Below, in pieces: positions 3,006-23,825 of a stretch of 64,000 bases of DNA. A model generated the notes under the pieces. It was not told where the DNA came from, searched no databases, and was given only the letters and a program-made list of their open reading frames with translations. Each line of letters begins with the position of its first letter. The stretch's first letter is position 1. The translations under genes and the position numbers were made by a program. Source of the DNA: Candidatus Thorarchaeota archaeon (GTDB lineage: Archaea > Asgardarchaeota > Thorarchaeia > Thorarchaeales > Thorarchaeaceae); contig JAFGAR010000151.1 of NCBI GenBank assembly GCA_016933575.1, forward strand, positions 64,001-128,000, read 5' to 3'.

Positions 3006-3521
3006 ATGGCTACGAAGATTACCAAGGAACTGATAACTTCTTTTCCAAAGTTCAAGGCTGCGTGGGAGAAGGATGCTGGAAAACCAGAGAACACAATCAT
3101 GTACTATCTCATTGCAGCTCTCAATGTTGAGAAGGATCCAAAGATTGCTGAAGCGATGATGACTGTTGTTGTTTCTAAAAAGGATTGTCTGGAAGACACA
3201 AGCTCTCCATCTGGTCTGATTTTGGGAAGGAGCGCAAGCTACTACATTGGGCAATTTCAAGGGAACAAGAATATCGCTCGCTCCTACGTGGGCGGCACAA
3301 ATACGAACAACTACAAGATCAATAACAAAGCCCTCACAATGACCGTTGTTAGTAAACAAGAGCATGGCAAAGGCGTCAAGATATTCATCCAGAGTGGCGG
3401 AAAGGATCTTGGTACTCCAGTACAGCTCGCTCAAAACAATGAGGGGCAGTGGAAACTTACCAATTACAGTTCAATATGCACTGGTGTCAAGAAGACCATT
3501 CAAGAAGAGGGCGATTTTTAA
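3006..3521 (+). CDS. Conserved hypothetical protein (DUF6935-like)
   Basis: 171 aa; ARSYVGGT...NYK and SGGKD...PVQL...GQWKL...SS motifs; family name is from recollection only. Confidence 0.5.
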   Translation: MATKITKELITSFPKFKAAWEKDAGKPENTIMYYLIAALNVEKDPKIAEAMMTVVVSKKDCLEDTSSPSGLILGRSASYYIGQFQGNKNIARSYVGGTNTNNYKINNKALTMTVVSKQEHGKGVKIFIQSGGKDLGTPVQLAQNNEGQWKLTNYSSICTGVKKTIQEEGDF

Positions 3522-3698
3522 GTTACTAGGGACCGAGTCAGGTCCTTTCGATTCTCCTCTTCTTCTTATTTTTCAGGTACAGCTATTAGAAAGTCTGTTT
3601 AGACTGATATCTACGTCCCGTGAGAGTTTCTTGTTATCATTTCCTTTATGCATTAAATAGTCTGGAATCTAGTTCTTCTCTCAAACAATTATGATAAT

Positions 3699-3752
3699 CA
3701 TGTAACAGAAAAACATATAAGTTGTAATAGTGTTACAAATTACATGCAATAC
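3699..3752 (+). promoter_or_regulatory. TATA-like box flanked by TGTAA/TTACA inverted repeats; contains a motif shared with 5903-5925
   Basis: AAAAACATATAAG at 3709-3721; TTGTAA-N5-TTACAA at 3722-3738; GTGTTACAAATTACATGCAATA from 3730. Confidence 0.5.
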
Positions 3753-3796
3753 TTACAGGTCCGGGTTGCGGGAATGTGGGTTTGCAGAGGAGAGAT

Positions 3797-4053
3797 GAGC
3801 AAGATGACTGATGATGCAAAGCATCGCAATGCCTCTAACAAAAGGGGACGAAATTCGGGACTCAAGACTCTCGAGTCCCTGTACTACGAATACACTCACA
3901 GGGGTGAGTGAAGAGGAAGAGGTGAAAGCAAATGGCACTAACAAAGAATGAACGGAAAAAGTACCGTACAAAGAAGGCTCAGTCCACTGAAGCCTTGGCG
4001 TACGCTTGGCTCTACAGAGAGTTATAGAGGCGCACCATCAGTCATCTATGCTC
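3797..4053 (+). ncRNA. Candidate ~260-nt multibranched ncRNA of unknown family
   Basis: Closing helix AGATGACTGATG(3802-3813)/CATCAGTCATCT(4036-4047) plus GAGCA/TGCTC; GCCTCTA/TAGAGGC; three internal hairpins; no credible ORF. Confidence 0.7.
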
Positions 4054-4132
4054 GAAATAGTATCTACTCCATGAATATCAGTATTTTAGTTGCTTTAATT
4101 CCAAGGTAGTTTATATCACCCGGACTATACTC

Positions 4133-4465
4133 ATGACTATGGGGGCGTTAGTTAACTCTCAGATCATGAAATATATGATCTATGATACTCGGGGTCTTGA
4201 TGAACCAGATGCTGTATACACTACTGCTGTACAGATTGCTGATGAGATTATGGAAGGCGTTGAAAGACTTCATCATTCAAGCACACTTGAAGCTGCTACT
4301 CTCTTTATCACGAATTCCGGAGCACAGTTAGTCCTATTGACCCGATCGGATGACAATGAACCTATAGATCGAATGTTTGATAGCACCCTCAAACGAGTGA
4401 CATACGAGTCTGAGAGTGGGAATCTGCACACTTACGTTATACCGATACTAGAAGCTGAAAAATAG
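4133..4465 (+). CDS. Hypothetical protein
   Basis: 110-aa ORF; TATA-like TTTATAT at about 4110. Confidence 0.6.
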   Translation: MTMGALVNSQIMKYMIYDTRGLDEPDAVYTTAVQIADEIMEGVERLHHSSTLEAATLFITNSGAQLVLLTRSDDNEPIDRMFDSTLKRVTYESESGNLHTYVIPILEAEK

Positions 4466-4575
4466 TGATCTGTTTTGACCAATGTCTGTTGGCAGCTCAA
4501 TGAAATCTGTCTAGATAGTATATTTCTTATTGTGGAACTACTATCGAGTCCTATCGGAATCGCCGGGGTGATTTA

Positions 4576-5706
4576 TTGAAACTAAAGGTCTTCGAGCTTG
4601 AACGTCTACAATCTGAATGGGAACATAGAGTACAATATAATCTCAGTGAGAGTGGTGTGGAACCCCTTCATATCAGAGAATTGACGGACACACCGGAATT
4701 GAAGCAACAACTGCTTGATATTCAATTAGGCTACCCACAAACGAATGGTTCGATTCCTCTTCGTGAAGCTATCGCTCAGTACTACCCCGGATCTGGTGCA
4801 GACCATATACTTGTCACGAATGGCGGTGCAGAGGCAAACTTTCTATCAATGTGGTGGCTACGTCACGAGAAACCTGAACTCAACGAACTGGTGTTCATGG
4901 CACCCAACTATATGCAGATGAGTGGTGTTTGGAAAACTCTGGGAGGCACTGTGAATCTCTACAAGCTCCAAATGGCTCACGACAAATGGTCTCCTGATTT
5001 GGATCAATTGAGGTCTCTAGTGACCAAGAAGACAGCAGCAATTACAATCTGCAATCCAAATAATCCCACAGGTGCAATCTTCGACAAAGAGACGCTTGGT
5101 GAAATTGTAGATATTGCTAGAGAGCATGACACTTGGATTATTTCCGATGAGATCTACAAAGGCGCAGAGATTCAGGACGTAAGGACGCCTTCACTTCATG
5201 GTATGTATGATAAAGTGATCATAACCTCAAGTCTCTCCAAAGCCTATGGTCTTCCCGGTCTTCGCCTTGGTTGGGCAGTGTGTCCCGATGAACAGACTGC
5301 TAAAGAACTCTGGTCATATTCCGACTACACAACGATTTGCCCAGCAAAGACTTGCGATTGGTTAGCGACACTCGCCTTGAATCCTAAGGTCCAAGCAATG
5401 ATTCGAAAACGAACAAGAGACCTCCTCAAAGAGAATTGGGGCATCATGAAGAACTGGCTAGACTCGCATGGTGATCTATTCGAATATGTACCTCCATCTG
5501 CAGCAGCAATCTGTTTCATCCGGCAAAAGACAGGATTGTCGTCTTTAGACCTCGTATTCAGACTGATGAAAGAGAAGAGCGTACTCATATCTCCGGGTGA
5601 GCATTTTGAGATGCCTGGATATCTTCGTATAGGCTTCGGATCTGAGAAGAAACGTCTTCAGGAAGCACTTGGAATGATTACCGAGTTCCTCAATGAATTA
5701 AGCTAA
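4576..5706 (+). CDS. PLP-dependent aminotransferase, class I/II
   Basis: NPNNPTG, ISDEIY, SLSKAYGLPGLRLGW (PLP lysine); SD GGGGTGA before TTG start. Confidence 0.92.
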   Translation: MKLKVFELERLQSEWEHRVQYNLSESGVEPLHIRELTDTPELKQQLLDIQLGYPQTNGSIPLREAIAQYYPGSGADHILVTNGGAEANFLSMWWLRHEKPELNELVFMAPNYMQMSGVWKTLGGTVNLYKLQMAHDKWSPDLDQLRSLVTKKTAAITICNPNNPTGAIFDKETLGEIVDIAREHDTWIISDEIYKGAEIQDVRTPSLHGMYDKVIITSSLSKAYGLPGLRLGWAVCPDEQTAKELWSYSDYTTICPAKTCDWLATLALNPKVQAMIRKRTRDLLKENWGIMKNWLDSHGDLFEYVPPSAAAICFIRQKTGLSSLDLVFRLMKEKSVLISPGEHFEMPGYLRIGFGSEKKRLQEALGMITEFLNELS

Positions 5707-5865
5707 TCTTGAGCCTTTAAATTGTGTATCTTTCTGCAGAAATGACACTAGAACTAAACAATTTAAGACTAATAATGCCTTAATTTCTCAAATGAACTCT
5801 ATTTTCCCATATTTGGCGTCATAAAACATTGATAAAACTTTCAATAGATAATAACACAACCATGT

Positions 5866-5925
5866 CAAATTTCTATTGCTTGCAAATTGTAGAAATTTGT
5901 CTGTGTTACTACATTACATGCAGTA
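5866..5925 (+). promoter_or_regulatory. 10-bp inverted repeat plus second copy of the GTGTTAC..ATTACATGCA motif
   Basis: CAAATTTCTA(5866-5875)/TAGAAATTTG(5890-5899); GTGTTACTACATTACATGCAGTA(5903-5925). Confidence 0.45.
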
Positions 5926-5930
5926 GACTC

Positions 5931-6081
5931 TGATTTGAGTAGCTGCAGGATGCAAGACGAATGAACATGAATGAAAGAGACATGAATGAAAGTTTGCCTG
6001 CTAGAATCAAACGACCACAAAACAATCCCATAGAGGTACTATCGCAGATCGAGTTTGCGCGAATATACTATGATGGTCCGT
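5931..6081 (+). ncRNA. Candidate structured leader or ncRNA with a repeated GAAUGAA loop
   Basis: Two imperfect stem-loops; 13-bp direct repeat ACATGAATGAAAG at 5965-5977 and 5980-5992. Confidence 0.4.
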
Positions 6082-6110
6082 GAAATAAGTGAAATTCGAG
6101 AGGTGATATT

Positions 6111-6644
6111 TTGACTGAGTCCTATTCAGAGGAACGAGACATACTCGGTCACTTTCATGTAATGATGCAGATGGTTTCATCAACTCTCATGAATAAAAAT
6201 GGGAACACAGTTTCTGCTACAGCAAGGGATCCAGAGTATGCCTGTCTGCGGTCAATGATGCTCGAACCACAGAATCCCACAATGTGGAATGCCCTTGCTC
6301 TGGTGTATATAATGACCAATAATTATCAAGAAGCCTCTGATGCAATTGAGAGGTCTCTTGATCTGGACACCAGTGTGGCATGGACCTGGACCATCTGGGG
6401 CGACCTACTTGGTCTTCTTGGTGAGGATATAGAATCTGAGCGTGCCTATCGCATGGCTGTGGAACTGGGGTCGAGAGAGCCGCATGTACTCAATAGACTT
6501 GCTCGATTATGCTCATCCAGGAGATGCTATTCAGAGGCACTGTCATTACTTGAGGACTTGATACCTCTCAAGCCTGAGGACCAATCCCTTTGGGACTTGT
6601 ATTCTGAATGCCTATCACACAGAACACTTCTCACTCATGATTAG
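6111..6644 (+). CDS. Tetratricopeptide repeat protein
   Basis: TPR pattern (EPQNPTMWNALA, A..AYRMAVEL, KPEDQSLW); SD GAGGTGA before TTG. Confidence 0.8.
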   Translation: MTESYSEERDILGHFHVMMQMVSSTLMNKNGNTVSATARDPEYACLRSMMLEPQNPTMWNALALVYIMTNNYQEASDAIERSLDLDTSVAWTWTIWGDLLGLLGEDIESERAYRMAVELGSREPHVLNRLARLCSSRRCYSEALSLLEDLIPLKPEDQSLWDLYSECLSHRTLLTHD

Positions 6645-23570: not shown

Positions 23571-23825
23571 CCGAATGAATTTGACTCGGCCCAACCGAGC
23601 TCTAGAGATTAATAGAGGACCTTCCCGGTTTCCCTTGTGGATGGTGTTGCCAGTGTTAGTTTCGACTATCTCTCCCAGTTCTTTGAGTACAATAGAGCAT
23701 ACTTGGGTACTCAATAAACTCCTAGTGGAAGTAGTGTCGTCGAAATTGTATCGAGGCTTTGTTGATACCGCAAAGGTTACTTACAGTCAGGCATGTGCCG
23801 TCTAGAAGGAATGAGGTTATGTCGA

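Follow-up and report, generated by a model that had tools for sequence, protein, structure and literature searches.

Organization of the two loci

The analyzed window is a stretch of 64,000 nt (forward-strand positions 64,001-128,000 of contig JAFGAR010000151.1) from a Candidatus Thorarchaeota archaeon (GCA_016933575.1), the genome of which comprises 3,466,336 bases (3.47 Mb) and is 85.5% complete. It contains two neighboring loci, both on the forward strand, whose AT-rich promoters lie 2.2 kb apart. The predicted transcript of locus 1 starts with a 5'-terminal hairpin (3745..3786), which is followed by the purine-rich, Shine-Dalgarno-like sequence GAGGAGAG (3789-3796) and by ORF1 (3804..3911), encoding a 35-aa micropeptide with the conserved C-terminal signature L-x-T-L-[DE]-S-L-Y-Y. 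A second Shine-Dalgarno sequence, GAGGTGA (3919..3925), is located 6 nt before ORF2 (3932..4027), which encodes a basic micropeptide of 31 aa (MAL...STEALAYAWLY). The transcript of locus 2 also begins with a 5' hairpin (UGCAG...CUGCA, 5919..5947), after which directly comes the conserved sequence GGAUGCAAG (5948-5956). Downstream are an upstream ORF of 40 aa (5961..6083), with the conserved C-terminus [FL]A[RK]IYYDGP, and the gene of a 177-aa TPR protein (6111..6644). The latter is syntenic with locus 1 across the genus, at a distance of ~2.3-5.5 kb downstream. TPR families were the only matches found for the 177-aa protein, including weak NCBIfam matches to SycD/LcrH and SctY.

The two loci share the upstream motif GTGTTAC-N2-3-ATTACATGCA. 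According to the original prediction, one copy precedes each locus (3730-3751 and 5903-5925) and no other exists in the window. Both copies are indeed present at these coordinates, and the statement can be extended to the whole genome, in which exactly two copies were found, at 3730 and 5903 on the same strand, compared with ~0.001 expected from an i.i.d. estimate based on genome composition. Local alignment of the two 65-nt promoter stretches gave a score of 17, which was equalled in none of 500 shuffles (0/500) and reached by 7 of 40,000 real 65-nt windows of the genome. A search for the exact pattern in metagenome contigs yielded more than 120 matches. None of these is homologous to either locus, and they are therefore considered to be background. 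The motif is located downstream of the TATA box and ahead of the predicted transcription start.

A palindromic operator candidate in the locus-1 promoter

The locus-1 promoter contains a genus-conserved GTAAC element (3702..3706, ~85% column identity) upstream of a TATA-box-like element, ACATATAAG (3713..3721; genus consensus AATACTTATAT). The conserved TATA-like box is separated from the first base of the conserved 5' hairpin by ~26 nt (26 +/- 3 nt); in archaeal TATA-type promoters, the box is found ~24-28 nt ahead of the transcription start. The TATA-like box is followed by the operator candidate TGTAATA-G-TGTTACA (3723..3737), a palindrome with one mismatch to the genus consensus TGTAATA-S-TATTACA. 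The left half of motif copy 1 (3730..3751) is the right arm of this palindrome (core GTAATA-S-TATTAC); the copy also takes in a heptad that resembles a third half-site, AATTACA (3738-3744), the region where transcription is predicted to start and the opening bases of the 5' hairpin. The whole would form a strongly conserved archaeal promoter, ordered as TATA box, array of 7-nt GTAATA/TATTAC-type boxes and transcription start. Column identity at locus 1 is 81-88% in the promoter versus 70% in the transcript.

The palindrome is kept at 13 locus-1 promoters from 12 genomes of the genus; four locus-1 homologues (G006, G017, G013 and G003), however, have GTAATA-C-GTAATA in its place. In 28 genomes of the genus we found 53 perfect sites, compared with 17 for a reversed control; 20 of the 53 are located at the gene of a probable regulator or a paralogue, and 13 at locus-1 promoters. 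Two other conserved genes are also preceded by such sites. In relatives, the palindrome is linked to a 54-aa and a 158-aa gene, neither of which was detected in this genome. A nucleotide profile of the entire locus-1 promoter matches locus 1 alone in this genome, so that a wide regulon based on it was rejected.

A probable ribbon-helix-helix regulator

Two further copies of the perfect palindrome are present in this genome (~0.05 expected), one of which sits between the TATA box and the start of a conserved gene whose 112-aa product is a probable ribbon-helix-helix (RHH) regulator. The core GTAATA-S-TATTAC is found 63-112 nt before the start codon in all 21 orthologues of this RHH-like gene (21/21), with one base changed per arm in G017 and one base changed in G011. 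The spacing between TATA box and palindrome differs, however, being 8-9 nt in the regulator promoter versus 2-3 nt at locus 1. Because the palindrome is common to the locus-1 promoters and all 21 RHH-like orthologues, locus 1 is probably a target of this self-regulated, RHH-like repressor.

The assignment of the 112-aa protein to the RHH class is probable, although its fold is weakly supported. Pfam RHH_1 matches 5 of 26 members with a best E of 2e-4, the copy of the window genome falling below the curated cut-off, and a PDB profile search with the RHH-like protein returned no match. The top Foldseek/VIA-align matches are the RHH domains of ParD, MazE, PrpA and NikR; these matches are weak (E > 1), and their structural Z of 5.4 is no higher than that of unrelated entries. 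The monomer model shows a helix at the expected strand position.

Both the identity of the binding protein and the direction of regulation are our inference: the RHH-like protein would repress its own gene and locus 1, and its occupancy of the DNA between TATA box and start site would block the recruitment of RNA polymerase. One DNA-binding factor had been proposed to control both transcripts. For locus 1 this proposal gains good comparative support from the genus-conserved palindrome, which also occurs in the promoters of the probable RHH regulator; it does not extend to locus 2, where the resemblance is significant in this genome alone.

The motif copy at locus 2

Motif copy 2 (5903..5925) is specific to this genome and comprises the half-site-like hexamers TGTTAC (5904-5909) and CATTAC (5912-5917) and the start of the 5' hairpin. 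Absence from orthologous loci had been named as grounds for refuting the original prediction, and for locus 2 this is the case: in 11 other genomes the motif is absent from it, and none of them shows a significant likeness to locus 1 there. The full palindrome was found at locus 2 in none of the genomes examined, the full-promoter profile of locus 1 does not detect locus 2, and the hexamers are spaced by 8 nt at locus 2 versus 7 nt at locus 1. Locus 2 appears to have a different, weaker promoter, which would drive the conserved 40-aa protein and the TPR protein. In this genome alone, its region from -17 to +5 seems to have come to resemble locus 1, sharing its start-site bases and carrying two hexamers that look like half-sites in direct orientation. 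On balance, we favor the interpretation that the shared motif is core-promoter DNA of two neighboring small-protein operons and is unrelated to free regulatory RNAs.

Whether the resemblance at locus 2 has a function is a separate question. It may quite possibly have none, having arisen by drift or by a short conversion-like event between AT-rich promoters that already shared start-site bases. In agreement with this, the orthologous locus 2 of G017 has the same length between the flanks and already matches 10 of the 18 positions, the ancestral hairpin start of locus 2 is CATGCAG or TGCAG, and the motif is missing from locus 2 of the other genomes. However, such an origin requires about seven substitutions, every one of them towards the locus-1 sequence, and the stretch separating the two motif blocks differs in length, which speaks against simple copying.

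It is conceivable, though doubtful, that motif copy 2 is instead a functional and recently evolved operator of this genome, at which the repressor binds two direct half-sites and co-regulates both operons, perhaps only weakly. The similarity of the two promoters exceeds chance in both the shuffles and the genome windows, and locus 2 matches this genome's own TGTTAC variant, not the genus consensus TATTAC; in G011 and G017, the operator of the regulator gene itself also contains TGTTAC. Furthermore, omega of pSM19035 and other RHH proteins recognize arrays of 7-bp repeats, whether direct or inverted (PMC9499535). However, a gap that breaks the contiguity of the array lowers the activity of omega (PMC9499535), and the hexamers at locus 2 are 8 and not 7 nt apart. 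In addition, only half of the palindrome is present, the left arm matching 2 of 7 positions, and the site is conserved in 0/11 other genomes and missed by the promoter profile.

The predicted transcripts as probable mRNAs for small conserved proteins

The original prediction regarded both loci as structured RNAs. Locus 1 is strongly structured (z = -6.3 against shuffles, with covarying helices) but carries two conserved reading frames. Locus 2 is not: shuffled versions of the stretch 5900-6115 fold equally well (z = -0.42), and besides its short 5' hairpin, which has the same fold in 17/17 orthologues, it consists of the conserved 40-codon ORF. Both supposed structured RNAs are best read as mRNAs for tiny conserved proteins.

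In the locus-1 transcript, positions 3803-3816, which cover the start codon of ORF1 and 10 nt after it, pair with 4033..4046 in a long-range helix that is conserved in all homologues. This helix over the ORF1 AUG has 10-14 bp and shows compensatory G-C to A-U changes. Compensatory changes were also found in the terminal hairpin and in the ORF1-internal hairpin, the latter covarying while the amino acids vary. The locus-1 mRNA would be a bicistronic message for ORF1 and ORF2, folded into the 5' hairpin, hairpins internal to ORF1 and a start-codon helix formed with sequence 3' of ORF2. Rfam searches revealed no credible family, either with gathering thresholds over the whole window or with permissive thresholds over 3500-6200, and a tRNA search found none. 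SRP RNA and RNase P RNA were rejected as identities of the locus-1 RNA, both genes being located elsewhere in the genome. In two metatranscriptome runs of the same study, no contigs matched the stretch, which argues neither for nor against expression.

All three small reading frames bear the marks of coding sequence. Intact frames were found in 18 (ORF1), 17 (ORF2) and 16 (locus-2 upstream ORF) genomes of the genus, and the indels in them are multiples of three. The differences at the three codon positions are 887/867/1766 for ORF2 and 212/170/538 for the conserved part of ORF1, in which 252 synonymous codon differences were counted, compared with 77 and 109 in the other two frames. ORF1 occurs in this genus only and as a single copy. 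The ORF2 family is present in 67 of 85 other genomes of the archaeal family and in 0 of 314 other genomes of the phylum, with ~14 copies in this genome. The family of the upstream ORF comprises 68 database proteins, of which the named ones are all annotated as Thorarchaeota "hypothetical protein".

Neither Pfam nor NCBIfam provided a credible family for any of the three small proteins, their sole match being sub-threshold (YqzE for ORF2, E = 0.025). The ESM Atlas contained no usable match for ORF2 or the upstream ORF, and a literature search on Thorarchaeota small proteins found nothing relevant. Paralogy among ORF1, ORF2 and the upstream ORF is unsupported (profile-profile P of 0.07-0.43), and a broadened profile of the ORF2 family matches neither of the other two. 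Kinship of the two leaders is likewise unsupported, as the profile of the locus-2 leader misses locus 1.

The conserved structure raises the possibility that the RNA itself is the main active product of locus 1, be it a dual-function riboregulator or a fold-back-locked module resembling type I toxins, with the peptides of secondary importance or one of them acting as a toxin. Such a role would fit the 5'-3' helix that conceals the start codon and the covariation of the ORF1-internal hairpin, as well as the syntenic copy in G013, which retains the promoter and ORF2 with ORF1 cut to 7 codons. We nevertheless consider it unlikely. The peptides of ORF1 and ORF2 are hydrophilic, charged and basic, without a membrane-spanning segment; the codon-position signal is strong; and the ORF2 paralogues retain the peptide but lose the RNA architecture.

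The GAAUGAA heptamer

GAATGAA occurs at 3946, 5959, 5969 and 5984, i.e., in four copies at the two loci: a single one in the 326-nt locus-1 RNA and three within 32 nt at locus 2. The heptamer had been reported to lie in unpaired regions, which is correct for its positions and for the minimum-energy folds, in which all four copies are unpaired, yet every copy is inside a conserved reading frame. GAAUGAA is simply the codons for K-N-E and M-N-E. The cluster at locus 2 includes an in-frame 15-nt duplication within the upstream ORF, seen as two 13-nt direct repeats (5965-5977 and 5980-5992) with a period of 15. Tandem Repeats Finder gave no report for locus 2, as a pair of 15-nt units does not reach its scoring threshold, but the repeat can be read straight from the sequence. 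Genome-wide, GAATGAA is about two times more frequent than composition predicts. Just 2 of the 17 other locus-1 homologues and 0 of 19 locus-2 orthologues retain the heptamer. A search of the 85.5%-complete genome for CsrA (PF02599) found none, although another RNA-binding protein could conceivably take its place.

A scheme resembling CsrB/CsrA had been proposed, with both loci as regulatory RNAs under one factor and the free RNA titrating a GAAUGAA-binding protein away from the TPR-gene leader; despite the non-random motif pair, the strong structure of the locus-1 RNA and the excess and clustering of the heptamer, this is scarcely credible, because GAAUGAA is coding, poorly conserved, present as a lone copy in the supposed sponge and partly duplicated in frame at locus 2, the locus-2 leader is no more structured than shuffles, and neither CsrA, in the 85.5%-complete genome, nor an Rfam match was found.

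Comparison with known regulatory systems

The probable regulator resembles self-regulated RHH repressors (omega/ParB of pSM19035, CopG, MetJ and ParD-type antitoxins) in carrying the palindrome in its own promoter in 21/21 orthologues. It is likewise small, and its core (REVSVMTRMS and two subsequent helices) appears beta-alpha-alpha-like and is accompanied by a long C-terminal helix, although support for this fold is weak. As for omega (PMC9499535), the candidate operator consists of contiguous 7-nt boxes in mixed orientation. Unlike for these repressors, the host is an Asgard archaeon with TATA-type promoters, neither a toxin partner nor a gene for a partition ATPase was observed beside the RHH-like gene, and the conserved external target would be a micropeptide operon.

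Archaeal repressors such as MDR1, LrpA and Phr block the recruitment of RNA polymerase by occupying DNA between the TATA box and the start site. At both locus 1 and the regulator gene, the candidate operator has the corresponding position, downstream of the TATA box and ahead of the predicted start. The RHH-like regulator comes from another protein family.

Fold-back inhibition is known from the type I toxin mRNAs hok and aapA1. Similarly, the conserved long-range 5'-3' helix of locus 1 hides the point at which translation of a very short ORF begins. However, the locus-1 peptides are hydrophilic and not membrane toxins, the mRNA is bicistronic, and the paired element is the AUG, not the ribosome-binding site. 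The likeness to CsrB/CsrA is limited to the proposed short motif repeated in RNA loops and in a leader; unlike CsrB, the locus-1 RNA has one GAATGAA, which is non-conserved and in a coding frame, and the search for a CsrA gene in the 85.5%-complete genome gave none.

At locus 2, a short peptide gene with a conserved C-terminus lies immediately upstream of a small all-TPR protein, as in RRNPP peptide/TPR pairs. Unlike in RRNPP systems, the 177-aa TPR protein has no DNA-binding or enzymatic output domain and the 40-aa peptide no signal peptide. The weak NCBIfam matches of the TPR protein also point to a likeness with small TPR chaperones of the SycD/LcrH class.

Implications

The two loci may be parts of one circuit, in which the self-regulated RHH repressor gates the fold-back-locked micropeptide mRNA, the neighboring peptide-TPR operon has been recruited via new half-sites, and the Tyr-rich peptides (L-x-x-L-Y-Y and IYYDGP tails) are ligands of the TPR protein. 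We regard this as a speculative picture with little chance of holding in full. If true, it would be an archaeal peptide-receptor circuit without a described counterpart.

The analysis corrects a tempting misreading: a strongly folding, Rfam-negative Asgard "ncRNA" is an mRNA for two conserved micropeptides. Micropeptides such as those of the multi-copy ORF2 family are largely absent from Asgard annotations. Furthermore, the helix that sequesters the start codon suggests a kind of translational control that has mostly been described for bacterial toxin mRNAs. For an uncultured lineage, a concrete regulon can be proposed, in which a single probable RHH repressor would act through a 13-bp palindromic core operator on few conserved targets, dominated by very small proteins.

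Both loci very probably encode small proteins

The DNA motif reported to precede two structured RNA loci was confirmed at 3730-3751 (locus 1, with downstream ORF1 and ORF2) and at 5903-5925 (locus 2, with a 40-codon ORF and a TPR gene). GTGTTAC-N2-3-ATTACATGCA occurs exactly twice in the 3.47-Mb Candidatus Thorarchaeota genome, both times on the + strand of the window and 2.2 kb apart, and about 0.001 further copies are expected from the genome composition. Local alignment of the 65-nt promoter stretches of the two loci gave a score of 17, which was reached by 0 of 500 shuffles and by 7 of 40,000 windows taken from the real genome. Chance does not account for the motif pair. GAATGAA was likewise found at 3946, 5959, 5969 and 5984. 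The exact two copies, the alignment statistics and the GAATGAA positions together show that the sequence facts of the original prediction hold.

The prediction also envisaged a GAAUGAA-reading protein that is titrated by free RNA, as in CsrB/CsrA. All four copies lie inside reading frames, encoding K-N-E in ORF2 and M-N-E in the 40-aa ORF, and two of the three at locus 2 form an in-frame 15-nt duplication (5965-5977 and 5980-5992). The locus-1 copy is kept in only 2 of 17 other homologues and the locus-2 copies in none of 19 orthologues, and a PF02599 search of this genome (85.5% complete) did not find a CsrA homologue. The sponge model is without support.

Instead, we are highly confident that both loci are small-protein operons. 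Homologues of 3690-4110 were found in 17 of the 27 other genus genomes and, at the DNA level, nowhere outside the genus. All 18 copies that were read have an intact ORF1 (3804-3911, 35 aa), and 17 have an intact ORF2 (3932-4027, 31 aa), the remaining copy having CTG instead of ATG. Each is preceded by a purine-rich Shine-Dalgarno-like sequence, and indels in their homologues are multiples of three. Differences by codon position number 887/867/1766 for ORF2 and 212/170/538 for the conserved half of ORF1, a signal supporting that both are coding; this half of ORF1 also has 252 synonymous codon differences in frame, versus 77 and 109 when read in the alternative frames. ORF1 is single-copy and restricted to the genus (19 of 28 genomes, this one included; none of 58 family genomes outside it). 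The ORF2 family is multi-copy, with members in 67 of the 85 remaining family genomes and in none of 314 from elsewhere in the phylum.

About 14 ORF2-family copies are present in this genome. Most are arranged in tandem pairs under a promoter other than that of locus 1, and contig ends are a frequent location. At least six such loci outside the window (contigs C21 (end), C153:~23600-23790, C139 (end), C49, C67 and C138 (start) of this genome, G000) encode MAL...ST.A..YAY.YRR peptides, most in tandem pairs and several at contig ends. Their promoters carry GTCAC-N5-GTGAC inverted repeats, with GGTCAC clusters downstream, which may constitute a second operator system for this peptide family. In genome G013, the locus-1 copy syntenic with the TPR operon (L235, G013:C4:89073-90085) keeps the promoter, palindrome and ORF2, with ORF1 cut to 7 codons, and a complete second copy of locus 1 is found on a different contig. 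Genome G002 has a tandem paralogue of the whole module about 400 nt upstream of the main copy (L018:1874-2173, - strand), comprising a promoter, an ORF1-like frame, a GTG-started ORF2-like frame and a start-codon helix. Between locus 1 and the aminotransferase gene, a 110-aa ORF (4133-4465, + strand) has no Pfam or NCBIfam match and resembles Roadblock/LC7-type proteins by eye.

At locus 2, the second motif is followed by the 40-codon ORF (5961-6083), and this ORF directly by a conserved gene for a 177-aa TPR protein; in this arrangement, 16 genus genomes conserve the C-terminus of the small protein, [FL]A[RK]IYYDGP. The 40-aa protein has 68 database entries, and all named ones are Thorarchaeota 'hypothetical protein'. 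Synteny of locus 1 and the TPR operon holds across the genus. No described family was found for ORF1, ORF2 or the 40-aa peptide in Pfam and NCBIfam, or in the ESM Atlas for ORF2 and the 40-aa ORF.

RNA structure

The locus-1 transcript folds far better than shuffles (z = -6.3); the locus-2 leader overall is not unusually structured (z = -0.42). Three elements of the locus-1 consensus fold are kept with compensatory changes: a hairpin within the variable ORF1 half, a terminal hairpin, and a long-range helix pairing the ORF1 start codon and following bases (3803-3816) with 4033-4046, just 3' of ORF2. This helix has 10 bp in the consensus and about 14 bp in this genome, and is also present in the G002 tandem paralogue. 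Rfam gave no match, either for the whole window or for 3500-6200 at permissive thresholds; SRP RNA and RNase P RNA, considered as identities for locus 1, are both located elsewhere in the genome.

The locus-2 leader retains a 5' hairpin, UGCAG...CUGCA, followed by GGAUGCAAG, in 17 of 17 orthologues. GGAUGCAAG (5948-5956) is nearly invariant among them. In most genomes its AUG shares the reading frame of the small ORF, but in this genome and G006 a stop follows within a few codons, so coding alone does not explain its conservation.

The locus-1 promoter and its candidate regulator

The block upstream of locus 1 has 81-88% column identity in the genus, versus 70% for the transcript. Its elements are, in order, GTAAC, a TATA box, the sequence TGTAATA-S-TATTACA, a weaker box A(A/T)TACA and the base at which the 5' hairpin begins, some 26 nt from the centre of the TATA box. 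This genome's version of the array is GTAATAG / TGTTACA / AATTACA (3724-3744), in a 7-nt register; the predicted motif corresponds to its last two boxes together with bases of the start site.

Elsewhere in this genome, the 15-nt palindrome has two perfect copies (about 0.05 expected). One copy lies between a TATA box and a 112-aa gene, and the other 1 kb beyond, in an AT-rich intergenic region between divergent genes (L191:3490-3857; G000 C140:94489-94856). That region also holds several GTAATA/TATTAC-like boxes; on its two sides are an ORF for a 139-aa membrane-type protein carrying NPxWGIPR repeats and a gene with a caspase domain (Peptidase_C14). G023 and G015 keep the site at about 1 kb from the 112-aa gene, and G012 and G024 share the sequence context.

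Orthologues of the 112-aa gene are present in 20 further genus genomes (67-76% identity), and in 21 of 21 copies the palindrome stands 63-112 nt before the start codon, with diverged flanks. The core of the encoded protein is like that of ribbon-helix-helix (RHH) proteins. Pfam RHH_1 matches 5 of 26 members (best E = 2e-4), and in structural comparison RHH antitoxins and NikR ranked highest. Because these matches are weak and a PDB profile search was empty, we regard an RHH fold as probable. Omega of pSM19035 is an RHH protein documented to bind contiguous 7-bp repeats, direct and inverted (PMC9499535). Roughly 100 nt upstream of a paralogue of the RHH-like gene (G000 C180:3774-4070) stands a degenerate form of the palindrome, TTTAATACTATGACA (C180:3670); the paralogues may each possess an operator variant of their own.

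Across the 28 genus genomes, 53 perfect GTAATA-N-TATTAC sites were found, versus 17 for the reversed control, and the centre base is C or G in 50 of them. Classed by sequence context, 20 lie in regulator promoters (19 orthologues and one paralogue), 13 in locus-1 promoters (12 genomes), about 5 at the '+1 kb' position, 8 upstream of a conserved 54-aa ORF and 2 upstream of a 158-aa ORF, the rest being unclassified. Enrichment of the palindrome extends to several further genera of the family. The 54-aa ORF (MANLKIPIE...), whose promoter palindrome is flanked by extra GTAATA boxes, occurs in eight genus genomes (L222-L227, L231, L233) and was not found in this genome's assembly.

The motif at locus 2

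No perfect palindrome was found at locus 2 in any of the 28 genus genomes. Here the left palindrome arm is absent, the spacing of the two hexamers is 8 nt instead of 7, and the TGCAG part belongs to the ancestral hairpin. When the core promoters of both loci were compared within each of the 12 genomes having both, resemblance was significant only in this genome (p = 0.04-0.99 in the other 11). In G017 the orthologous stretch is equally long and matches at 10 of 18 positions, so the motif either arose here by substitutions or was lost elsewhere. A neutral resemblance is the reading to which we lean, at slightly less than even confidence; a weak new operator in this species seems rather unlikely.

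Proposed regulation of locus 1

Locus 1 is probably under repression exerted through the heptad and palindrome array that separates its TATA box from the start site. The repressor would most likely be the self-regulated 112-aa RHH-like protein, an assignment that we favour only narrowly. The fold-back helix would limit ORF1 translation, and a ribosome terminating at ORF2 could open it, ORF2 ending 5 nt (in this genome) to about 15 nt before the 3' arm. The proposed system would work like self-regulated RHH repressors with repeated short boxes and would share its placement with archaeal repressors positioned between the TATA box and the transcription start; with fold-back-locked toxin mRNAs, the mRNA has just a single feature in common. 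The headline idea of the original prediction is unsupported, yet the locus is more than an ordinary one.
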